A DNA stretch of 10,456 nucleotides from NCBI GenBank assembly GCA_019057635.1, contig DXJL01000062.1:1-10456 (forward strand). Reading direction: 5' to 3'. Made by a program: the position numbers and the translations under genes. The notes below the pieces were generated by a model that ran no database searches, had not been told where the DNA came from, and saw only the letters and a program-made list of their open reading frames with translations. The first letter of the stretch is position 1; every line of letters starts with the position of its first letter. Origin of the DNA: Candidatus Heimdallarchaeota archaeon (GTDB lineage: Archaea > Asgardarchaeota > Heimdallarchaeia > Hodarchaeales > Hodarchaeaceae). Of this stretch, positions 1-10,456 are shown piece after piece.

Positions 1-759
1 CAAGGAGAATCTGCAGAGCAAGTAGCAGATAAATATAAATTAACAAGAGAAGATATGGATCATTTCGGCTTGTGGTCACATCAAAAAGCAACAAAAGGAA
101 TGCGAGATAAAAAGGAATATGAAAAAAGGGTGGTTCCAATTGAAGTTGAAATGGAACATCCAGATGGCTCAACTGAGATGAGAACTGTAGCCGAAGATCA
201 GACAACAAGAGAAGTATGTCTTGATGATCCTGACATCGCTTGGGAACAAATGAAAAGCCTAAAGCCTGTTTTTCGTGAAGGTGGCAGAGTAACTGCTGGT
301 AATTCGTCACAAATCTCTGATGGGGCCTCGGCTGTGATGTTGATGGCCCGAGAAAAGGCTGATGAGTTAGGACTCAAACCTCTTGTAAGCATTTTATCAA
401 CAGCGGTTGCTGGGGATGATCCACAATTGATGTTAACTGGACCAATCCCTGCCATGGAACGAGCATTAACAAGAGCGGGAGATTTAACCATAGAAGACAT
501 GCATTGTATAGAACCGAACGAAGCGTTTGCTTCTCCATGCTTGGCTTTTGCAAAGCATTTTGATTATCCCTTCGATGATCCCCGTGTAAATCCTTATGGA
601 GGCGCAATAGCAATTGGTCATCCTATTGGTTCGTCTGGAGTGCAATTTTTTACGAATATGGTTCATTATCTAGTGAATACTAAACAACGTTTTGGCATTC
701 AAACTCTATGCGGCGGTGGGGGTGTTGGTATTGCCACAGTTGTTGAGCGAACTACGTGA
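1..759 (+). CDS. Thiolase (acetyl-CoA acyltransferase family), 5'-truncated by the window edge
   Basis: Frame 1 is open from base 1 (QGESAEQVADKYKLTREDMD...), so the ATG at 55 is internal. Thiolase motifs are present: VTAGNSSQISDGA, NEAF, VNPYGGAIAIGHPIG and C-terminal LCGGGG. TGA stop at 757-759. Confidence 0.95.
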   Translation, partial: QGESAEQVADKYKLTREDMDHFGLWSHQKATKGMRDKKEYEKRVVPIEVEMEHPDGSTEMRTVAEDQTTREVCLDDPDIAWEQMKSLKPVFREGGRVTAGNSSQISDGASAVMLMAREKADELGLKPLVSILSTAVAGDDPQLMLTGPIPAMERALTRAGDLTIEDMHCIEPNEAFASPCLAFAKHFDYPFDDPRVNPYGGAIAIGHPIGSSGVQFFTNMVHYLVNTKQRFGIQTLCGGGGVGIATVVERTT

Positions 760-1043
760 TTCCTTTAGTTTATTGTTTCCTTAATTTCCAATTAAAGAAT
801 GAAAGGTAACATGTACTATCGGTAATCATCCTTCCTTCCTCCTCAAGTTGTTTTAGCAAAGAAAAAATAAGTTATATGACCTTCTAGAATGTAGTATCAA
901 AAGATTCTTGAATTTTATCTAGATTAAAAGGAATTTTGACAAATAAGAGTAAACAACCAACAGTATGTCGGAGAATATTAATATTATTTAGAGTGATGGC
1001 CTTTATCTTCCCCAAATATCTGATAAGGGTAGATTTTGGCAGA

Positions 1044-1050
1044 TATATAA
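1044..1050 (+). promoter_or_regulatory. Candidate TATA box (TATATAA) upstream of the PLP-enzyme operon
   Basis: TATATAA lies about 53 nt upstream of TTG 1103. The background is AT-rich and there is no clear purine-rich BRE, so support is weak. Confidence 0.3.
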
Positions 1051-1090
1051 TTACAGGCAAGAAAATCATTATGACTATTCACTTCGTATT

Positions 1091-1094
1091 GAGG
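1091..1094 (+). promoter_or_regulatory. Shine-Dalgarno-like GAGG before the TTG start at 1103
   Basis: GAGG ends 8 nt before TTG 1103, which favours TTG over the ATG at 1118. Confidence 0.4.
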
Positions 1095-1102
1095 CTGGAA
1101 AC

Positions 1103-2572
1103 TTGATTGACTTAACAATGAATGAAGAAGTTCTAGAACGAGCAGTAAAACGTGCAAGAGAAAGAAATATCCTAATACCAACTTTTGAAGAACAAAAAAA
1201 CCCACATGAAAATGTTCCAGAAATCATTAAAGAAGACTTAAAGAAATTAAGTTTATGGGAAGTAACCCCAAGGAACTTATTTAGAATCACATGGAAAAAT
1301 AACCCTGTTGAGAGAGGTGGAGGATATCAGAAATTAGCAAACTATATTGAACTCCCCCCTGAATTGACAGGTGTCGAAGCAAGAATCATTGCTTTGGTAG
1401 GAAAATGGTTTCCAACAGGAGCACATAAAGTGGGAGCAGCTTTCGGTTGTTTAGTCCCACGCCTTGTTACTGGCCAATTTGATCCAACCAGACAAAAAGC
1501 CGTGTGGCCTAGTACAGGTAACTATTGTAGAGGTGGAGCTTATGATTCAAGTATTCTTGCCTGTGAATCAATTGCGATTTTACCTGAAGAGATGAGTAAA
1601 GAGCGATTTGAATGGCTTAGTACTGTTGCAGGTGAAGTAATCGCCACTCCAGGGAGTGAATCAAATGTCAAAGAAATATACGATAAATGTCACGAATTAA
1701 ACGCAGAGAGAGGGGATGATATTACAATATTCAATCAATTCGATGAATTTGGGAATCATCTATGGCACTACGAAGTAACAGGAAATGCGATTAAGGAAGT
1801 TTTGGACAAAGAAATAGGTGGAGGATCATATAGAGGCTGTTGTTTCACAACTGGAAGTGCTGGAACGCTTGGATCAGGAGATTTCTTGAAAGAACATTAT
1901 CCAACTAGTTTTATAGCAGCAGGAGAATCAGTACAATGTCCTACACTCTATATGAATGGATTTGGCGCCCATCGAATTGAGGGTATCGGAGATAAGCACG
2001 TTCCATGGGTGCATAATGTAAGAAATACTGATTTTATAGTGGCTATTGACGATGTTGATGCGATGAATTGGGTTAGATTATTTAATGAACCTTCAGGCCT
2101 TAAATATCTTCAAAACGATATTGGTGTCCCTGAGAACATCGTTAATCAATTAGACCTCCTAGGAATATCAAGTATGGCTAATGTGCTATTCGCAATCAAA
2201 ATGGCAAAATATTATGAAATGACAAGCAAAGATATCATTGTTACAGTGTTTACTGATTCAATGGAAATGTACCAATCTCGAGTTAAGGAACTTAGGGAAC
2301 AATTCGGCCAGTATGAAAAAATTCATGCCGCCATTGATTATCATCGATCTATTCAGTCGATTAAAACTGATTATGTTCTCGAACTCACATATCTCCAGAA
2401 GAAACGAGTTCACAACCTGAAGTACTTTACTTGGGTTGAGCAACAAGGAAAAACAATGGAAGAGCTGGAACGACAATGGTATGACGATTCGTACTGGCCC
2501 TCTATTCATAAAATGACTCCTCAGCTAGATGAGTTGATTAAACAGTTTAATGCACGAGTCAATTCCCTTTAA
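1103..2572 (+). CDS. Fold-type II PLP-dependent enzyme, cysteine synthase (CysK/CysM)-like with long N- and C-terminal extensions; substrate unknown
   Basis: 489 aa. Motifs: GKWFPTGAHKVG (K109, nt 1427-1429, equivalent to the PLP lysine of NPxGSxKDR), STGNY (TSGNT-like loop), NQFDEFGN..H, TTGSAGT phosphate loop, HRIEGIG and LGISS. Alternative start is ATG 1118. Confidence 0.88.
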   Translation: MIDLTMNEEVLERAVKRARERNILIPTFEEQKNPHENVPEIIKEDLKKLSLWEVTPRNLFRITWKNNPVERGGGYQKLANYIELPPELTGVEARIIALVGKWFPTGAHKVGAAFGCLVPRLVTGQFDPTRQKAVWPSTGNYCRGGAYDSSILACESIAILPEEMSKERFEWLSTVAGEVIATPGSESNVKEIYDKCHELNAERGDDITIFNQFDEFGNHLWHYEVTGNAIKEVLDKEIGGGSYRGCCFTTGSAGTLGSGDFLKEHYPTSFIAAGESVQCPTLYMNGFGAHRIEGIGDKHVPWVHNVRNTDFIVAIDDVDAMNWVRLFNEPSGLKYLQNDIGVPENIVNQLDLLGISSMANVLFAIKMAKYYEMTSKDIIVTVFTDSMEMYQSRVKELREQFGQYEKIHAAIDYHRSIQSIKTDYVLELTYLQKKRVHNLKYFTWVEQQGKTMEELERQWYDDSYWPSIHKMTPQLDELIKQFNARVNSL

Positions 2573-2601
2573 TAAAATGTATAATCCAGAGTGTTACTGT
2601 G

Positions 2602-3879
2602 ATGAACCCAAGACACCAACAATTATATGATTCGACTTTTTCTTGTCCAAAATGTAAAGCTAGAATCAATGAAGAAGATTTCATTAAGAAATATTGTGGA
2701 TGTGGCTACAGATTAAAGATATCATTTGATTATGATGTATTGAAGGAAGTCGTCACAAAAGAAAAACTCGAGAAAAGACCATTCAATCATGAACGCTATG
2801 TAGAATTTTACCCATTAAAAGATCCAGATAATTTGATCAAATTGGGGACTGGAGGGACACCTTTTGTTAAAGCTAATAAAATTGCTAAGAAAATTGGTGT
2901 AAAGAATCTTTTTCTTAAAATCGAATCAGTAAATCCCTCTGGAAGTTTTAAAGATCGGCCTATTTCTGTAGGCGTCTCGAAAGCAAGGGAACTTGGTTCG
3001 ACAACCGTTACAGCAGCATCTAGTGGAAATGCAGCAGCTGCCTTAGCAACTTTTGCAGCCCGATCAGGAATGGACGCAGTAGTGTTCGTACCTGAACATG
3101 CTCCTCGGGGAAAAATAGCACAATTAACTTTTCTCGGAGCTAAAGTTGTAAGGGTATCAGTTGTGAAAGAAGGAGAAGATCCAACCGTAAATTTATTTAA
3201 AAAAGCATACCAAGAATATAATTGGACTCCTAGTCCTTCATTTGGACCATTCAACCCATTTCAGTTCGAGGGAACAAAAAGTTTAGGGTTTGAAATTTGT
3301 GAACAAAGCAACTGGCAAGTACCTGATTGGGTTCTGTGTAATACTGGGAGCGGGGGCCTTCTAGCAGGAACGTTTCAAGGATTTTTTGAATTCCAACAAC
3401 TGGATTTCATTGATAAACTACCAAAAATGGTAGCAGTACAACCGGCTGAGTGCGCACCCATAGTTGAGTCATTTAAAAAGAAAGTTAAACCATTAAACTT
3501 CATAGATTGGACTAAAACTCCAAATACAATTGCTGGGGGTTTAGCTGATCCCCATCCTTGGGATGGTAATGAAGCACTTGAGGCTATTTATGAAAGCAAG
3601 GGTACAGCAGTAGCGGTAAAAGAAGCTGATATATTGCGAACTCAACGCTGGTTAGCAGCTGATGAAGGGATTTTTGGTGAACCTTCAGGAACAGCAGCAT
3701 TGGCTGGATTAGAAATGCTAGTAAATGATGGAACTATTGATCCATCTGATTTCATTGCACTTCCTATAACTGGGACGGGTTTTAAGGATCCTGAAGTCGT
3801 TTTCGAAACCGTAACAGTGTTTGATGCAATCCCCCCCGATTTGAATAGGCTAAAAAAACTCTTAGAACGAATGGAATAG
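2602..3879 (+). CDS. thrC: Threonine synthase-like PLP enzyme with N-terminal Zn-ribbon
   Basis: N-terminal CPKC...YCGCG. Motifs: LGTGGTP, LKIESVNPSGSFKDR, ASSGNAA, NPFQFEGTKS, TGSGG, EPSGTAALAG and ITGTGFKD. Start is ATG 2602 or the adjacent GTG 2599, 26-29 nt after the upstream stop (likely operon). The family is clear but the true substrate is not. Confidence 0.85.
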   Translation: MNPRHQQLYDSTFSCPKCKARINEEDFIKKYCGCGYRLKISFDYDVLKEVVTKEKLEKRPFNHERYVEFYPLKDPDNLIKLGTGGTPFVKANKIAKKIGVKNLFLKIESVNPSGSFKDRPISVGVSKARELGSTTVTAASSGNAAAALATFAARSGMDAVVFVPEHAPRGKIAQLTFLGAKVVRVSVVKEGEDPTVNLFKKAYQEYNWTPSPSFGPFNPFQFEGTKSLGFEICEQSNWQVPDWVLCNTGSGGLLAGTFQGFFEFQQLDFIDKLPKMVAVQPAECAPIVESFKKKVKPLNFIDWTKTPNTIAGGLADPHPWDGNEALEAIYESKGTAVAVKEADILRTQRWLAADEGIFGEPSGTAALAGLEMLVNDGTIDPSDFIALPITGTGFKDPEVVFETVTVFDAIPPDLNRLKKLLERME

Positions 3880-3998
3880 TAACTTATAGTTATGTAGATT
3901 CCCTCTTTAATGACAATACTGGTCTTTTGGGTAAATAGCAGCCAACAATAATTCTTTCAAACAAAGTAATTATTCCCTTCAATCGTGCGGATTTATCT

Positions 3999-4586
3999 GT
4001 GATTTCGATTTCAAAGCTTAAAGAGCTTCTATCCATGGGTGGAGCAGGTGGAATAGCGAGACGCTATATGGTTATGAATTCCTTTGATGGATCATTAACT
4101 GCGTTGGGAATTATACTTGGATCTTTATTAGCAGATGTTAAAGAACCTTCAACGATTCTGTTAGCGGGTCTTGGTGCTAGTATTGCAATGGGTGTCAGCG
4201 GAGGTTTTGGTGCATATCTTACAGAGATGGCTGTTAAAAAACAGGAAATGGCAGAAAAAGAAAAAGCTATGTTAGAGGAATTAAATGACACTGTGCATGA
4301 TCAGGCAGCTCAGGTATCTTCAATATTCGTAGCTATTGTTGATGGTATAAGTCCATTTATAGCAGCATCAATTAGCTTTATGCCTTACTTCTTTGCTCCA
4401 CTCTTAGACCTAGATATTGGGGTGGCATATATCTCCTCAATTGTATTAACAGCTATTGCCTTATTCATCTTGGGCGCTTATTTAGGGGTTATATCTGATG
4501 AAAATAAAGTGTTATACGGCCTCAGAATGGTTGTGGCTGGAGTTGTGACCGGAATTTTGGTCATGCTCTTGGAATTTGTAGTATAA
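3999..4586 (+). CDS. VIT1/CCC1 family (Fe2+/Mn2+ transporter-like) membrane protein
   Basis: 195 aa with about 5 hydrophobic segments. RRYMVMNSFDG TM1 motif, SIAMGVSGGFGAYLTE TM2 motif, and a short Glu-rich cytoplasmic helix. Start is GTG 3999 (ATG 4035 is an alternative). Confidence 0.85.
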   Translation: MISISKLKELLSMGGAGGIARRYMVMNSFDGSLTALGIILGSLLADVKEPSTILLAGLGASIAMGVSGGFGAYLTEMAVKKQEMAEKEKAMLEELNDTVHDQAAQVSSIFVAIVDGISPFIAASISFMPYFFAPLLDLDIGVAYISSIVLTAIALFILGAYLGVISDENKVLYGLRMVVAGVVTGILVMLLEFVV

Positions 4587-4672
4587 GTAAGAGATTATTC
4601 TTTTCAAATCAGCCCTTAAAAAAGGAGAAAGAAGAAGATTACTCTATAATGAAAAAACTGAAATAATTCCAG
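4587..4672. terminator. Convergent intergenic region with T-tracts (archaeal-type intrinsic termination)
   Basis: TTCTTTT follows the VIT1 gene on +. A6 runs near 4618-4623 and 4652-4657 read as T6 tracts downstream of the LLM gene on -. No strong GC hairpin. Confidence 0.35.
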
Positions 4673-5695
4673 TTATTTTGGAGCAAACGTATCAATCATC
4701 AACTTAACGTCATCTGAGAGTTGATAGAGAATTGGACATGTGCAACCATTATTAACCCATTGTTGAACACGATCGTAACACTCATCAGGAGTCCCACTTG
4801 CCGTTATCTTCTGAACAATTTCATCAGGAATATGTCTCATAGCTTTTCTGATTTGTTCTTTTGTAGCTGGCCACGTGAGTTCCGCATGGATTTTGTCTAG
4901 AATATCTTGAGGCATTTTACTCGCTTTCATTAAATGAGGTTGCTGTCCCATATATTGAGTGAGGAGTTCACGAGCTGCATCTAATGCCTTATCTCGATCA
5001 GGATCCATAGAGCAAACAATGAGCTGAGGCCGATCAATATCATCTATAGATCCTCCACCACGTTTCGCTCCAATCTCAAGATGTTTTAAAGCAGTCTTAT
5101 TGTAATCGGGCGTTACCATATAATTTAATACCACTCCATCTGCAAGTTTTTGTGCACAGAGTTCTCCCGTTAGTTCCATCATTTTCATTCCAGTTGCTCC
5201 AATATAAATGGGAACTTCTCTGGGTTTATCAGGATCTCCATGTACTATATCTAGGGTAATTCCATCAACTTTTACAAATTCTCCATTAAATGTGACGGTT
5301 TCCATATTAAATAGTCTTTTTAACACAGTTACATATTCTTTCATACGTTTTAACGGCTTTGTCCTAGGTGTTCCAACCTTACTTGCCAGTGGTTCCCACC
5401 ATGCTCCAATTCCACAGATAAATCTACCAGGAGCCATTTGATCCATCGTTGAAAATGTAGCAGCAACTGCAGGAGCCACTGTAACTAAATTATTTATAAC
5501 TCCAGAACCTAGCTTAATTTTGTTGGTTACTGCAGCCATCGCTGCCATTGGTACTGATGCTACTCTAGCTAATCGACTTTCTGCCTGCCAAATTGCTTCA
5601 AATTCTTTTTCTTCAGCATATTTAGCAAATTCCATCGACTCAGGTATACTGTGTTTATCTTGTAGGTAAATTGCTACACGTTTATAGTTACTCAA
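4673..5695 (-). CDS. LLM-class (luciferase-like) oxidoreductase, Mer-like, possibly F420-dependent
   Basis: 340 aa. [64 protein letters not shown] and ASGTPDEC are typical of LLM/Mer TIM barrels. TTG start with a strong GGAGGA RBS. Confidence 0.9.
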
Positions 5696-5704
5696 TACTC
5701 AAAA

Positions 5705-5711
5705 TCCTCCT
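5705..5711 (-). promoter_or_regulatory. Shine-Dalgarno site AGGAGGA for the LLM gene
   Basis: Reverse complement of TCCTCCT, 9 nt upstream of the TTG start at 5695. Confidence 0.7.
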
Positions 5712-5758
5712 ATATCTGAATAAATTCGAAAATTCTTCTTTACCAAAAAACTTTGTCA

Positions 5759-8215
5759 TCAATAAAAAGAGGGGGTGGTTTCTGGTTTGTATTTAAATTC
5801 GGGACGACCGTGGAAAACAACTGCAGTACACTTAATATTATTGACTAGCTTTTCTGAAGGTCGTTTACTTAGTCTAGGCTTTCCATAACCTAAAATAAGA
5901 AGGTCAAGATTATCTTTTTTAACAATGTTCCCTATGCTTCGCACGAAATTATGTCCAAGGACGTGACGTTGCTGAATGGGAATCCCCATCCTAAGGGCTT
6001 CTCCAATATTATGTAAAAAGATAGCTGTATTCTCCTGTACCCCCGGAGCTTCAGACATCACTTTTGGAGTAATTAGATCAGGGACATCCGTCCAGTGGTA
6101 GGCAACCAGATCTGACATCTTGGTAGAAGAAACTATAGAAATACCTATTTGTAAAAGGAAAGGATCACGTTTCGTTCCCGGAGTCAAGACTCCTACTTGA
6201 TTAAAAGTGAAATAATCCGTCTTTTTGCATTCCCTACAGGGAAATACCTCGAGACCAGGTATTGGCATTTTCCGAATAGAATCATGTGAAAGGCTTCGTT
6301 GCCAAAATTTCCGGTTCCGACGTGAGGGGAGAATAGCTAGTTGATAGTTACCTGTCGATGTAATATCACACAAGTGTTGAACAATATCTTGTGGTTTAGA
6401 ATGACCTTTTTCTGGACTAACGATCTTCAATTCATAAGGGATATGAAATTCGAGCAATTTATCAGTGTATTTATGAAATTTCTCCTCGGATTCATAACCA
6501 TAGTGATAAAGAGTAATTTTTTGTCCAAATTCATGTGCAAGGTGAACAGCTATTCGAAAGGCATCCCATTCATATTCTTTTCCTGCCAAAGGAACTAAAA
6601 TATTTTCACAGACTGTCGTAAAAAATGCTTCTGGAATATAATCAGCTCTCATTTTAGTATGCTTTCCTAATTTCGAAGATATTTTCATAGGGGTTCTACT
6701 GCGAGCAAAAATAAAATAAACAACCGAACCAAGAGATATCCATATCAGCGTGGTGACAAATGCATCTAGGTGTAAGAGAAGTGTGAATACAAAAATAGTA
6801 ATTAAAGCAATACCCCCTAGTAAAGGAATAAGGGGAAAAAGAGGAGTTTTATAACCATAGTCAAGCTTTTCCCGGGATTTTCTTACTTTTTTCCGAATTA
6901 TTACTGAAGCCAACAAAACCTGACCGAATAAAATCATAAACATGAAGCTTGCAGAAGCTGCTACCGTATCAATGGGGATAAGGACTGCCATGACAATAAT
7001 CAGTAAGCCTGTAACATTAATCGACGTGACTGGTGTATGACGTTGTGGTGAAACCGTTCCTAATTTTGATGGTAGTGAGCCATCTCGTCCTAATGCAAAG
7101 GCTACCCGAGTTGAGGAATAAATTGCAGCATTTAATGCAGAAAGGGTACTTAGCAGTCCTCCAAAGAGAATTACTATCAATCCCAATCCAGGGATCATAT
7201 GTTCCGCTGCATATAACAATCCGAGTTCTTCATGTTGACTTAAGAATTCATAAGTCTGCAAACCACCTGGAGGGGTAAACGCGCCTAATGAGACTAATCC
7301 AACAAGAAGATAAATTGGAATGACAATTAATACTGATAGGATCACTGATTTTGGGACACTCACTTTAGGATCATAAATTTCCTCCCCAGTTTGACATACA
7401 ACCTCATATCCTTCAAATGCAATGAAAGTAAAACCCATAGCCATGAAAATAGTGAAGAAACCTTTTGGAAAAAAGTTATCAATATTATTGAGTGCTTGAG
7501 TAGGATTTCCAGTCATTATTATGAGTCCAGTAAAAATAAAAAAGACTAAAATCAGAATTTTGGCCCCTGAAATCCAAACCTCGGCTTTACCCATAACGGA
7601 GGAACCGAGTTGATTAATCAGTAAGAAAAGGATAATGATGACTACTGCAATAGCTTTTTCGACAATAAAAATCGAATTTTCTGGAATTACAATCCCGAGA
7701 TTTGATAACAATGCCACAAAGTACGCTCCAAATCCAAGCGCATAGAGAGAGCCCGCCACTGCAGCAGCGAACCAACTCATCCATCCAGAGAAAAATCCTT
7801 GCGTTTCTCCAAGACCTGCACGAGCCCAAATATACCCTCCCCCTGCTTCTGGCATTGCTGATCCCAATTCTGCGTAAACCAACGCAATTAAGGTGGCAAT
7901 AACTCCATTAAATGCAAAAGCAACCAATAAGCCAGGCCCCGCAATTCCAGCAGCAATTCCTGTCAATACAAATATACCAGCTCCGATCATAGCTCCCACT
8001 CCAGTCATGGTAGCTTGAGTTACCGTCATATCTCTCGATAGATCAGCTCCAGTTAATACAGAATCTGCACCTTTCTCAGGAACTTTTTGAAGAATATAAC
8101 GTTTTCTACCGTAGAAGAGCACTTGGATTAGTGAGTAGCTTGCTAAGCCAACTACAATTACCATAGCAAGAGCTATCAAAAAAATCCCAAGTAGAACATC
8201 TGATGATACAGCCAT
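5759..8215 (-). CDS. APC-superfamily amino acid/polyamine permease with C-terminal tandem USP-like domains
   Basis: 818 aa. TM1 GVGAMIGAGIF, YAELGSAMPEAGGGY, TM6 FIAFEGYE, and SSTRVAFALGRDGSLP. The soluble tail of about 280 aa has NILVPL and LLILGYG...SEKLVNNIKCTAVVF, a USP-type beta/alpha pattern. Tandem TGA TGA stop. Confidence 0.9.
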   Translation of the reverse strand: MAVSSDVLLGIFLIALAMVIVVGLASYSLIQVLFYGRKRYILQKVPEKGADSVLTGADLSRDMTVTQATMTGVGAMIGAGIFVLTGIAAGIAGPGLLVAFAFNGVIATLIALVYAELGSAMPEAGGGYIWARAGLGETQGFFSGWMSWFAAAVAGSLYALGFGAYFVALLSNLGIVIPENSIFIVEKAIAVVIIILFLLINQLGSSVMGKAEVWISGAKILILVFFIFTGLIIMTGNPTQALNNIDNFFPKGFFTIFMAMGFTFIAFEGYEVVCQTGEEIYDPKVSVPKSVILSVLIVIPIYLLVGLVSLGAFTPPGGLQTYEFLSQHEELGLLYAAEHMIPGLGLIVILFGGLLSTLSALNAAIYSSTRVAFALGRDGSLPSKLGTVSPQRHTPVTSINVTGLLIIVMAVLIPIDTVAASASFMFMILFGQVLLASVIIRKKVRKSREKLDYGYKTPLFPLIPLLGGIALITIFVFTLLLHLDAFVTTLIWISLGSVVYFIFARSRTPMKISSKLGKHTKMRADYIPEAFFTTVCENILVPLAGKEYEWDAFRIAVHLAHEFGQKITLYHYGYESEEKFHKYTDKLLEFHIPYELKIVSPEKGHSKPQDIVQHLCDITSTGNYQLAILPSRRNRKFWQRSLSHDSIRKMPIPGLEVFPCRECKKTDYFTFNQVGVLTPGTKRDPFLLQIGISIVSSTKMSDLVAYHWTDVPDLITPKVMSEAPGVQENTAIFLHNIGEALRMGIPIQQRHVLGHNFVRSIGNIVKKDNLDLLILGYGKPRLSKRPSEKLVNNIKCTAVVFHGRPEFKYKPETTPSFY

Positions 8216-8317
8216 GGTGACAAGTCCTTACTAGAAACAGTAGAGGGAAGAAAGTAATTTGAGCAAACAAATTATTAGGTAATTATAATGTCAATCAAGA
8301 AATATTCAAATTTATAC

Positions 8318-8704
8318 CTAAAATCTGATAGAAGTAACTCCTCGTGTGGATCCTTTCTGGATACGAAAGCTGATATCGGGACGTAAAGCTCTTACTTCTC
8401 GATGTAATCCGCTTTTCTGCCAAATATAAGCTTCTATCGCTTGTCCATGCTTGTACCCATGAATCAATCGGACTTCCTCAACTCCACTTTCAAAAGATTC
8501 AATTATATCATCAACAATTCTTGTTTTTGCTTCATAAAGAGAGACACCATGATAATCAAATGATAAAAAAGGATGAACAGACTTATATTGCTCTCGTTTT
8601 GGATGAGTTTTACCTTTGGATAGGCCTCCAAGACAGTTCAGGCTGCAATATCCCATAAAAGCTTCTTCTGTGAGTTTATTGCCACAATTCTTGCAGAAAG
8701 TCAT
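8318..8704 (-). CDS. Small Zn-finger + Smr (small MutS-related) domain protein, 128 aa
   Basis: Start re-called at ATG 8704, because the 8872 start overlaps the divergent gene and adds non-protein-like sequence. N-terminal C4-x2-C7-x12-C20-S-x2-C24. Smr pattern: FDYHGVSLYEA...VRLIHGYKHG...RGVTSIRF. Confidence 0.75.
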   Translation of the reverse strand: MTFCKNCGNKLTEEAFMGYCSLNCLGGLSKGKTHPKREQYKSVHPFLSFDYHGVSLYEAKTRIVDDIIESFESGVEEVRLIHGYKHGQAIEAYIWQKSGLHREVRALRPDISFRIQKGSTRGVTSIRF

Positions 8705-8783
8705 TTTTTCCACAAAACAGATTAGAAAACGAAAAGATAATAATTTTGATTGAATTGAAGTTTTATCATAGGATGTATTCGAG
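8705..8783. promoter_or_regulatory. Candidate bidirectional promoter between the Smr and DUF3467-like genes
   Basis: 79-bp divergent gap with a central AAAAGATAATAATTTT (8732-8747). It reads as an A-run plus an AT box on both strands, about 30-40 nt from each ATG. Confidence 0.35.
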
Positions 8784-9116
8784 ATGGCCCAAGGATTACC
8801 CCGTAGGAACGTAAAATTTGATAATGTACCGAGTTTTGCTATATCAGGATTTTTTGGAGGAATAAATCCCAACGAAGGAAATATTAGCTTTTTTTCTGAT
8901 AAGCTCGTCCCCCAACTTGGAGCAAATGGTCAAATTGTGTTAGATACTGTCCAACATGATTTTGTTGCAAATATTAAGATGAGTCCATTAATTTTCAAAC
9001 GAATGGCAATATGGATGACACAGCATGTAAAAAAATATGAAGAAATGCATGGTGAAATCCAAGTTGGCCAAATGAAACAAAAGTCTGATCCTGATCAACC
9101 ATCATACTATGGTTAA
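8784..9116 (+). CDS. DUF3467-like hypothetical protein
   Basis: 110 aa with ATG start. The C-terminal VANIKMSPLIFKRMAIWMTQHVKKYEEMHGEI resembles the DUF3467 pattern (xMSPxxxKxx...YExxxGEI) and follows beta-rich segments. Family call is by eye. Confidence 0.65.
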   Translation: MAQGLPRRNVKFDNVPSFAISGFFGGINPNEGNISFFSDKLVPQLGANGQIVLDTVQHDFVANIKMSPLIFKRMAIWMTQHVKKYEEMHGEIQVGQMKQKSDPDQPSYYG

Positions 9117-9159
9117 GTCTCAGAAAAATGCCGTGAATGGACTGGTTCATTGATTATGC

Positions 9160-10428
9160 CTATGTATGGTTTTCAATAAGTGGTACTGGAACAGGTTCTT
9201 TGATTTCCTCTGCTCTGATTAGCGCATTCTTCAATAAAAGTGGTCCAACAATTTCTGTAATTAGAACACTTACTGCTACAATATCTATTAAAACGATAGC
9301 GATGTCGCTAGCCGCTTGCACATTTAATTCCAAGAGTCGAGTATATGCAAAAGCAGCTAGACCTAAAGCTACCCCAGCTTGACTTATTAAAGAGAATGGT
9401 AAATATCGTGTTACCTTTTGCGGCATATTCGAGAAGTAGGATGTAAAGAATGCTCCAGTAGATTTACCAATAGCCCGAGAAATGAAATAAAGTAAAATTA
9501 CCAATATTAAAGGTGTAAGGAGTAGATTCAGTTCCATTTCATATCCTACAAGAATGAAGAATAATGCAATTACAGGACTAGAAAGCCTTTCTACTCCTCG
9601 AATACAGGCTTTATTTTCACACTTGGCCAGTGTACTTAATGCAAAGCCAAATACAATACAGCTTAATATCACTGAGAAATGTAATAGTCCTGCAAGTGAA
9701 ATACATATCAAAACAGAAGGGAATACATATTCTGCGGACTCATATGCTTTGACACCTTCCATATGAAACGGTTTCATTGCGAATGCTAGGGCAATTCCAA
9801 GAATTATTGAACCGATTACCTCAACTATGATAGGTATGAATATCTCTAATAGTGATAGAGTGGAGGTGACGTAGGTAGATTCAGCATAACCTAATGCAAT
9901 ATTGAAGAAAATGATTGCTAGAATATCATCAAACGCGACAATAAACAATATCGTTTGACTGAGTGAACCATGAGCGTTATATTCTCTAATTACTTCAGAT
10001 GTCGCAGCAGGGGCCGTTGCCATCGCAATTGATCCTAGTAATAATGCCAAAATGAAATCCTGTATCAGAAAATTAACTAAGATAGCTACAACCAAGAAGG
10101 CTCCAAGAGCTTCACCAATTAATACGAATGGTAAACCCCAAGAAGCATCTCTTAATTTATATATATCAATATGAGATCCTATGCTATATCCAATGAACCC
10201 TAGTGCGCCTGTTGTTATTAAATATATTAATTCCGGTGTAGGTGGCGCAGGAAAATCTGTTACCATTGTAAATCCTCTTATCACAACTCCTCCTGTAATC
10301 AAACCTAAAACTTGAGGGATTCCGCGATTTCCTAGTCCTCTTGCAACGATAAGAGAGAAAATTATTACTACACCAATTTCTAAGACACCTATCAAAATCT
10401 CTACGTCATTCACGGCTTCTAGTATCAT
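9160..10428 (-). CDS. Cation:proton antiporter (Na+/H+ exchanger, CPA2/NapA-KefB-like), no C-terminal RCK domain
   Basis: 422 aa with about 12-13 hydrophobic segments. Motifs: ALGFIGYSIGSHI, IAMATAPAAT, IVAFDD, LFFILVG, SRAIGK, SQAGVALGLA and EIVGP. AAGGGGA RBS-like sequence at 10434-10440. Confidence 0.92.
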   Translation of the reverse strand: MILEAVNDVEILIGVLEIGVVIIFSLIVARGLGNRGIPQVLGLITGGVVIRGFTMVTDFPAPPTPELIYLITTGALGFIGYSIGSHIDIYKLRDASWGLPFVLIGEALGAFLVVAILVNFLIQDFILALLLGSIAMATAPAATSEVIREYNAHGSLSQTILFIVAFDDILAIIFFNIALGYAESTYVTSTLSLLEIFIPIIVEVIGSIILGIALAFAMKPFHMEGVKAYESAEYVFPSVLICISLAGLLHFSVILSCIVFGFALSTLAKCENKACIRGVERLSSPVIALFFILVGYEMELNLLLTPLILVILLYFISRAIGKSTGAFFTSYFSNMPQKVTRYLPFSLISQAGVALGLAAFAYTRLLELNVQAASDIAIVLIDIVAVSVLITEIVGPLLLKNALIRAEEIKEPVPVPLIENHT

Positions 10429-10456
10429 AATGATCCCCTTTGCATTTTATATTTGA

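Follow-up and report, generated by a model that had tools for sequence, protein, structure and literature searches.

A gene for a putative zinc-finger-Smr protein

We analyzed a window of 10,456 nucleotides, positions 1 to 10,456 of the forward strand of contig DXJL01000062.1 from Candidatus Heimdallarchaeota archaeon (GenBank assembly GCA_019057635.1). On its minus strand the window carries a gene (8318..8704, ATG at 8704-8702, stop codon TAG at 8320-8318) for a protein of 128 residues, in which a putative zinc finger and a variable linker precede a predicted Smr domain. This protein may be a small endonuclease that cuts RNA and is tethered by its finger. The translation of positions 8321-8704 begins with M-T-F-C-K-N-C. 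A longer mechanical open reading frame (ORF) of 184 residues starts at a TTG at 8872, and its 5' part lies antisense to a divergent gene at 8784-9116. The initial annotation had placed the start at 8704, and we keep this start because all 12 finger-bearing homologues begin at the corresponding Met; the TTG extension overlaps the neighboring gene. An A+T-rich, TATA-like box on the same strand (8737..8747) precedes the ATG by 33-43 nt and may be an archaeal promoter element; the same stretch also occurs upstream of the orthologue in locus L002.

The gene is real and evolves under strong purifying selection. The ratio of nonsynonymous to synonymous substitution rates (dN/dS) was calculated for five orthologues of the same genus (G000, G058, G061, G062 and G063), which form 10 pairs. 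It was 0.02-0.15 for the whole gene, 0-0.08 for the finger (eight computable pairs) and 0.01-0.13 for the Smr part. The linker is more relaxed and has the highest values of the gene, 0.14-0.53 (four computable pairs). Synonymous sites were near saturation in 9 of the 10 pairs. A chance ORF, opposite or beside real genes, would fit with the longer mechanical frame and with the antisense position of its 5' part, but the low ratios at saturated synonymous sites, the homologues found in several metagenomes and genomes and the confidently predicted fold make this explanation negligible.

The Smr domain

The Smr domain covers residues 46-128 (8321..8569, minus strand). The Pfam Smr profile (PF01713) matches residues 50-109 with an E-value of 3.8e-4 and 21.0 bits, under the gathering cut-off of 25.7 bits, which is an operational threshold and not a biological feature. 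The same match was obtained in eight of eight close homologues, always sub-threshold (best E 6.4e-5). Four relatives of the clade exceed the cut-off: P0027 (33.0 bits), P0013 (28.6 bits) and the ORFs of loci L013 (33.4 bits) and L018 (27.1 bits). Among PDB sequences, a profile of 29 family members matches the Smr domain of Thermus MutS2 (2zqe) at E 6e-6; the same kind of search with the single protein or with an eight-member profile returned a designed TIM barrel only, and no Smr chain.

From the 29-row alignment, AlphaFold2 produced a model with a mean pLDDT (predicted local distance difference test) of 86.1, and of 95-98 for residues 50-128. The domain is predicted to fold as beta-alpha-beta-alpha-alpha-beta-beta. 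With Foldseek against the PDB, the best eight rows are all Smr domains (best E 1.2e-3). VIA-align places 2zqe first (Z 11.0, 1.5 Å over 74 residues, 23% identity), followed by 4och (Z 10.2), a MutS2 model (9.8), YdaL/SmrA (8.9) and structures of the human N4BP2 Smr domain (8.7, 8.2 and 7.9); ranks 1-7 are Smr domains throughout. SmrB bound to the disome (7qgr_v) aligns with Z 7.0. Other IF3-C-like folds, such as TusA-like proteins and Alba, reach Z 6-8 and at most 7.9. The Smr identity of the domain is thus based on the predicted fold, the family profile match and the relatives above the Pfam cut-off. The Smr domain that the initial annotation had proposed for this region was recovered in the model and in both structural searches; the Pfam profile gave a match that falls short of the cut-off.

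Two motifs were found in the domain. The DxH motif, D50-Y51-H52-G53 (8546..8557), lies at the end of strand 1 and is the putative catalytic site. H52 is kept in all 29 aligned family members, and D50, H82, G83 and G87 in at least 90%. The second motif, H82-G83-Y84-K85-H86-G87 (8444..8461), is a variant of the HGxG substrate loop. In a hidden Markov model (HMM) alignment with three MutS2 Smr domains, this motif falls without a gap on H-G-K-G-T-G, and D50-Y-H52 stands opposite D-L-R. The second glycine of the GxG is therefore replaced by K85. Across the clade position 85 is polar or basic, an aromatic residue (Tyr or Phe) occupies position 84 in 26 of 28 family members, and the first and third glycines of the loop (G83 and G87) are kept. 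Both the intact DxH and the variant loop (I81-H-G-Y-K-H-G87) had been noted earlier from the sequence, and the translation bears them out. The protein has the DxH and the fold of the Smr superfamily and lacks its GxG (small-x-small) loop. Since the second glycine is replaced, we file the domain as a divergent subfamily; it is a non-canonical member of the superfamily. As read from the alignment, the signature of the clade is D-x-H-G plus H-G-[YF]-x-x-G.

The comparison with MutS2 shows common and distinct traits. The fold, the Asp at the end of strand 1, the H-G at the start of the loop, the third glycine of the loop and a C-terminal G-x-T are shared with 2zqe and other MutS2 Smr domains. In contrast, MutS2 has about 785 residues, with ATPase and clamp domains, D-L-R, H-G-K-G-T-G and no zinc finger, while the protein studied here has 128 residues, D-Y-H and H-G-Y-K-H-G. 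No MutS-type ATPase, clamp or KOW domain was found upstream of the Smr domain; for the whole protein, Pfam gives only Smr and a weak zinc ribbon. To our knowledge, the only known role of the DxH pair is catalytic.

The altered loop could also mean that the protein does not cut at all, and acts as a non-catalytic binder or sensor of nucleic acids or ribosomes. Alba and TusA, which belong to related IF3-C folds and align to the model with the Z of 6-8 given above, are binders. There is also a precedent within the superfamily: MutS2 of B. subtilis is described, in the available text of a 2025 review, as lacking the DxH, and its Smr domain as binding between collided ribosomes with no cutting of mRNA. 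However, the DxH is invariant or nearly so across 29 diverged members of the family, and the non-cleaving MutS2 proteins have lost it. We consider a purely binding role improbable.

The putative zinc finger and the linker

The N-terminal part contains four cysteines, C4, C7, C20 and C24, in a C-x2-C-x12-C-x3-C arrangement (8633..8695, minus strand), with Y-C-S at the second pair. The 12 finger-bearing sequences, which have 29-87% identity to the query over finger and linker, all share the four cysteines, K5, G18 and Y19. The four-cysteine finger seen in the initial annotation is therefore present in the translation and conserved among homologues. A model of residues 1-45 alone has a pLDDT of 67.9, with about 80 in the finger. 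In this model and in that of the full protein, the first ligand pair sits on a knuckle and C20 and C24 lie at the start of a short helix (residues 22-25), which comes after strand-like bridges, so that the predicted geometry is that of a treble clef.

The linker (residues 31-45, 8570..8614) is variable and predicted to be disordered, with pLDDT below 50 at residues 31-42. K30-G-K-T-H-P-K-R37 follows the finger. The basic linker described in the initial annotation exists in this protein, but it is not a conserved trait: the linker is Ser-rich and not basic in the subfamily of 132 residues (P0005, P0006 and P0009), and its sequence is not conserved between subfamilies.

The assignment of the finger to a family is less clear. 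Alignment of the finger with VIA-align to 48,161 representative chains gave 19 matches at Z of at least 2, the best at 2.8, with root-mean-square deviations of 4-8 Å. Sixteen of these come from entries of the large ribosomal subunit or of pre-60S particles, and seven of the 16 were verified as eL24 or Rlp24, which are also retrieved by the eL24 of the same genome; the remaining matches are YacG and two entries of a bacterial metallothionein. Foldseek with the finger returned nothing significant, the values being E 0.14 for MYND, 0.76 for the TRASH domain of ZMYM5, and 1.8 for both zf-HIT and eL24. No Pfam finger family matched at E below 0.01; Zn_Ribbon_1 reached E 0.053, and DUF2116, described as a 'probable treble clef', E 0.035 in one of eight members. 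When residues 1-33 were searched against the same genome, all matches were generic zinc ribbons at the N-termini of membrane and coiled-coil proteins, at E of 0.05 or higher, and a DUF2116 search of the genome gave nothing better than E 0.11. No usable match was obtained in the ESM Atlas with residues 1-36.

TRASH, MYM (FCS) and eL24-Rlp24 fingers have in common with this finger the pattern C-x2-C...[F/Y]-C-S-x2-C and the second ligand pair at the start of a helix. In the eL24 of the same genome (C-x2-C-x22-C-x3-C, with F-C-S), a hairpin of 22 residues separates the cysteine pairs, while the finger described here has a hairpin of 12 residues and Y-C-S. We take the finger as a lead towards a short treble clef of the TRASH/MYM/eL24 type. 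This was the class suggested at first sight; its C4 pattern and [F/Y]-C-S hold, but the scores that would fix the family are low (Z up to 2.8 and Foldseek E of 0.14 or higher).

The initial annotation raised a specific possibility, namely that the protein is a ribosome-collision (no-go decay) endonuclease, whose Smr domain would enter the interface of collided ribosomes and cut the mRNA there. Our results gave this idea no direct support. The finger might then replace the hook of SmrB or the CUE domains of Cue2 as the anchor, for example by binding rRNA in the manner of eL24 or Rlp24. The preponderance of chains from large-subunit and pre-60S entries among the finger matches, the signature shared with the genome's own eL24, the DxH kept as in SmrB, Cue2 and NONU-1 and the alignment of the model to disome-bound SmrB speak for it. 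However, the matches are weak (Z 2.0-2.8), and Foldseek ranks MYND, metallothionein, MYM-type TRASH and zf-HIT fingers equal to or better than eL24, all of them non-significant. Furthermore, comparison with known collision nucleases gives partial likenesses. E. coli SmrB is likewise small, with a C-terminal Smr domain and a DxH (D99-L-H101), but its N-terminus forms a hook for uS2 and its loop reads G132-H-G134, where the protein studied here has a C4 finger and a Lys in place of the second Gly. The NCBIfam SmrB model did not match the protein (P0001) at E up to 0.1, and no hook-like N-terminus was found. In Cue2, NONU-1 and N4BP2, a C-terminal DxH Smr domain is likewise preceded by a targeting module, but these proteins are large and are targeted by CUE or UBA domains that bind ubiquitin. 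Pfam gave no match to CUE or UBA upstream of the Smr domain; the architecture is finger, linker and Smr in 128 residues. We regard a role in ribosome collisions as unlikely.

Distribution and relatives

The nearest named record is 'Candidatus Heimdallarchaeota archaeon B3_Heim' (95% identity), followed by four metagenome-assembled genomes (MAGs) of 'Candidatus Hodarchaeota'. Farther matches, all finger-less, come from MAGs of Promethearchaeota and Hermodarchaeota, and the cluster names at NCBI are Hodarchaeales. By these records the contig is assigned to the Asgard archaea (Hodarchaeales), as the initial annotation had supposed for an archaeon, and not to a bacterium.

The family is small. Seven clusters were found at E up to 1e-3 among 5.77 billion proteins, and 17 with the profile. 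An exhaustive search of 1.84 billion proteins, with no length filter, gave 22 representatives, all of 71-143 residues except a single one of 1100 residues (P0028), which was rejected as a relative: it is a cadherin/PKD repeat protein and a spurious match. No long fused Smr relative was found in this search. In total, 12 sequences bear the finger and form two subfamilies that are about 50% identical; the architecture is rare. Within the phylum, the family is present in 48 of 400 genomes and in three of 33 families: f1 (seven of 21 genomes, plus the genome studied here), f19 (nine of 14) and f20 (31 of 135). At the level of the class it occurs in eight of 83 genomes, all from one genus (eight of its 22 genomes), and in none of the 61 genomes elsewhere in the class.

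The nearest sequence relatives outside the genus are stand-alone mini-Smr proteins of 80-95 residues from Promethearchaeota, Hermodarchaeota and some bacteria. They share D-x-H-G, H-G-[YF]-x-x-G and the domain length, but are finger-less, often have defence-like neighborhoods and fall in separate clades of the tree. The cluster of P0019 has 185 members of 91 residues with H-G-Y-x-x-G; since one of its members is named as a Latescibacterota bacterium, this subfamily is not confined to Asgard archaea. In P0017, a metagenome protein of 143 residues, a mini-Smr with the same signature is joined by a basic linker to a C-terminal C-x2-C...C-x2-C ribbon, an independent fusion of a zinc finger to the same Smr domain. 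Other mini-Smr relatives have basic N-terminal extensions. The pattern points to a repeated accretion of nucleic-acid-binding tails, as predicted from sequence, on this Smr domain.

Gene order, gain and loss

In five close species the gene order is the same: a divergent DUF3467-like gene, the finger-Smr gene and an amino-acid permease-Usp fusion. At this site, three other genomes (G057, G060 and G068) have an Smr-only gene of 84-104 codons, and no relic of a finger was found upstream of it in any frame. The finger is an add-on, with no counterpart in these same-site orthologues. In eight genomes (G066, G067, G069, G070, G071, G074, G075 and G076) the site is empty, and only 154-277 nt separate the two flanking genes. 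An Smr match above the Pfam cut-off is missing from all 22 genomes of the genus, and therefore the empty-site species appear to live without any Smr protein; their genomes are 83-99% complete, and absence beyond the inspected site is unproven. The finger-Smr gene is accessory and dispensable within the genus.

A quick-search tree of the two flanking genes, built from 371 columns of 16 genomes, joins the five finger-bearing genomes in one group, with a Shimodaira-Hasegawa-like approximate likelihood ratio test (SH-aLRT) value of 100. The Smr-only genomes are scattered in this tree, and a minimum of two changes is required to account for the empty sites. In the simplest history, the ancestor of the genus had an Smr gene here that was later lost several times. 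In a tree of Smr domains with 41 rows, the clade of the genus has a support of 87; the finger-bearing rows fit a single gain or loss, with a support of only 42. A recent mobile insertion was rejected: the flanking repeats are of chance size (10-14 nt), and there is no GC anomaly (0.35-0.37 around the gene, in a window range of 0.31-0.45).

This history also argues against the collision nuclease considered above. Three same-site orthologues lack the finger that would be the anchor, the gene is missing in 14 of the 22 genomes of the genus, eight of them with the empty site, with no other Smr protein above the cut-off, and none of the 61 remaining genomes of the class has it. In addition, no translation-related genes are found beside it.

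The gene immediately upstream, on the plus strand (8784-9116), encodes a DUF3467-like protein of 110 residues (Pfam E 1.5e-4, below the cut-off). Within the genus it is present in 19 of 22 genomes, and at every locus that could be read it is divergent to the amino-acid permease. The permease gene (5759-8215, minus strand) encodes 818 residues, with a C-terminal extension of about 300 residues that has a Usp-like match in Pfam; this fusion is conserved beside the Smr site across the genus. The DUF3467-like gene was rejected as a functional partner: it stays adjacent and divergent to the permease in the eight genomes without the Smr gene, so the link between the two reflects inherited gene order. 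Further along is a gene for a multi-pass membrane protein of 422 residues (9160-10428, minus strand), for which neither Pfam nor NCBIfam gave a match at E up to 0.1. On the other side, Pfam identified two adjacent PALP enzymes, dependent on pyridoxal phosphate, on the plus strand (2599-3879 and 1103-2572). In the first (426 residues) the catalytic domain is preceded by an N-terminal stretch rich in Cys, with C-x2-C and C-x-C, and the second (489 residues) has a weak PALP match (E 8.6e-10). The rest of the window encodes a thiolase, the two enzymes just described, a VIT1 transporter, a luciferase-like monooxygenase and membrane proteins. No Rfam RNA family was found in the window.

Mini-Smr genes in Promethearchaeota-type genomes

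The mini-Smr genes of the f20 (Promethearchaeota-type) genomes have other surroundings. We inspected 12 loci (L010-L021) and scanned 28 neighbor proteins. These genes encode 63-93 residues, and one of them 169, with one to three matches per genome and variable contexts. Their neighbors include an AAA_15/AAA_21 ATPase, a Schlafen AlbA_2 protein, a C5 DNA methylase fragment, PIN and HepT proteins, an UvrD helicase with Top1 zinc ribbons, UPF0175/PIN_5 pairs, NERD and an SLFN-g3 helicase, a photolyase-related protein and an SPL/DUF5131 radical-SAM protein. L020 (1516-3008) and L017 (149-1704) are examples of such loci. These contexts suggest that the f20 mini-Smr clade sits in variable or defence-type islands, and it may be a family of defence-island nucleases. 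Membership in known defence families was rejected, with no PADLOC match for the eight proteins tested. On the Smr-domain tree, the f20 clade is separate from the finger-Smr clade.

Neighborhoods of this type raise the question of a DNA substrate. The protein could be a nickase comparable to Thermus MutS2, SmrA/YdaL or N4BP2, acting in repair, in recombination or as a DNase linked to defence or to mobile elements, with the finger binding DNA. The best structural matches of the model are indeed MutS2 Smr domains and YdaL, and the accessory, patchy distribution would suit such a role; roles in conflict have been proposed for expanded Smr families in the accessible text of Glover et al. 2019. However, the f20 neighborhoods concern distant relatives of a separate clade, and PADLOC, as said, recognized none of the proteins tested. 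The gene studied here has no repair, defence or mobile genes around it and shows neither flanking repeats nor a GC anomaly. In addition, SmrA lacks the DxH and the three aligned MutS2 proteins have D-L-R, while this family keeps D-x-H. We find a DNA-directed activity doubtful.

Proposed function

We favor, with a probability of about 0.45, a two-module Smr endonuclease that is tethered by its finger and cuts RNA. In this proposal the C-terminal 83 residues would form a divergent Smr domain of IF3-C-like fold, with the Asp50/His52 pair at the position of the catalytic DxH of SmrB, Cue2 and NONU-1, and contacts to the backbone of the substrate would be made by the beta2-alpha2 loop (HG-Tyr-Lys-His-Gly). 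A zinc-binding C4 treble clef on a flexible tether, formed by the N-terminal 25-30 residues, would add affinity for nucleic acid, most likely structured RNA. The enzyme would be conditional or accessory, and not a housekeeping translation factor. Zinc binding, nuclease activity, the RNA substrate and the targeting role of the finger are what we infer.

Published work on Smr proteins provides the background for this proposal. In both bacteria and eukaryotes, Smr nucleases initiate the decay of mRNA where ribosomes have collided. D99-L-H101 of SmrB is required in vivo, and SmrA lacks the DxH, as given in the text available of the Saito et al. 2021 preprint; the DxH is needed for the activity of SmrB, NONU-1 and Cue2 according to the portions available of two preprints and one review. 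RNA is the likelier substrate because the family keeps the DxH of RNA-cleaving Smr proteins, which is lost in SmrA and MutS2, as far as these sources describe them. The GxG (s-x-s) loop is thought to contact the substrate (Saito et al. 2021; Glover et al. 2019, from the sections available), and many eukaryotic Smr domains are fused to RNA-binding domains in the account of Glover et al. 2019.

Several points weigh against our proposal. The Pfam match of the Smr domain stays under the cut-off, and the Lys at the second glycine of the GxG means that activity or specificity may differ from those of known Smr enzymes. The finger has only weak fold matches (best Z 2.8, best Foldseek E 0.14), and its zinc binding is deduced from the Cys pattern alone. 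Solved Smr domains include DNA-nicking enzymes, and therefore the fold does not decide between RNA and DNA. Furthermore, no genes for translation, repair, defence or mobile elements were found in the window, and the neighborhood gives no functional hint.

Full-text searches of the literature found no characterized archaeal Smr protein, no archaeal collision nuclease and no finger-Smr architecture, although paper supplements with phyletic tables may list the family; the gap concerning collision nucleases fits the possibility of such a role discussed above. The initial annotation knew of no characterized protein of this architecture, and the literature searched agrees, while Smr domains in Asgard archaea are already in print (Saito et al. 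2021 preprint, in the text available). The 2025 review, in its accessible text, treats Smr proteins for bacteria and eukaryotes only. What sets the protein apart is a divergent Smr signature and a previously undescribed finger fusion, predicted here for an accessory gene of an Asgard lineage.

Meaning for Asgard archaea

A more ambitious reading would make the protein a self-contained archaeal no-go-decay nuclease, in which an abbreviated eL24/Rlp24-like finger on the rRNA holds a DxH Smr domain that cuts mRNA on stalled or collided ribosomes. This is a long shot. If true, it would be the first endonuclease for ribosome collisions or stalls to be described from Archaea, and would belong to the order that is at present put nearest to the eukaryotes; the finger-less orthologues and mini-Smr proteins would represent the ancestral, untargeted form. 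The reach of the family is limited to part of one genus of the class and two other Asgard families, and the gene is dispensable. It is not a general archaeal rescue factor, since it is confined to few lineages and dispensable there, and a distribution as patchy as this speaks against its having passed to eukaryotes by simple vertical descent. Within Hodarchaeales, however, this DxH Smr protein of only 128 residues is a concrete, very small candidate for RNA cleavage and ribosome binding, and the natural finger-less orthologues are built-in controls for the contribution of the finger.

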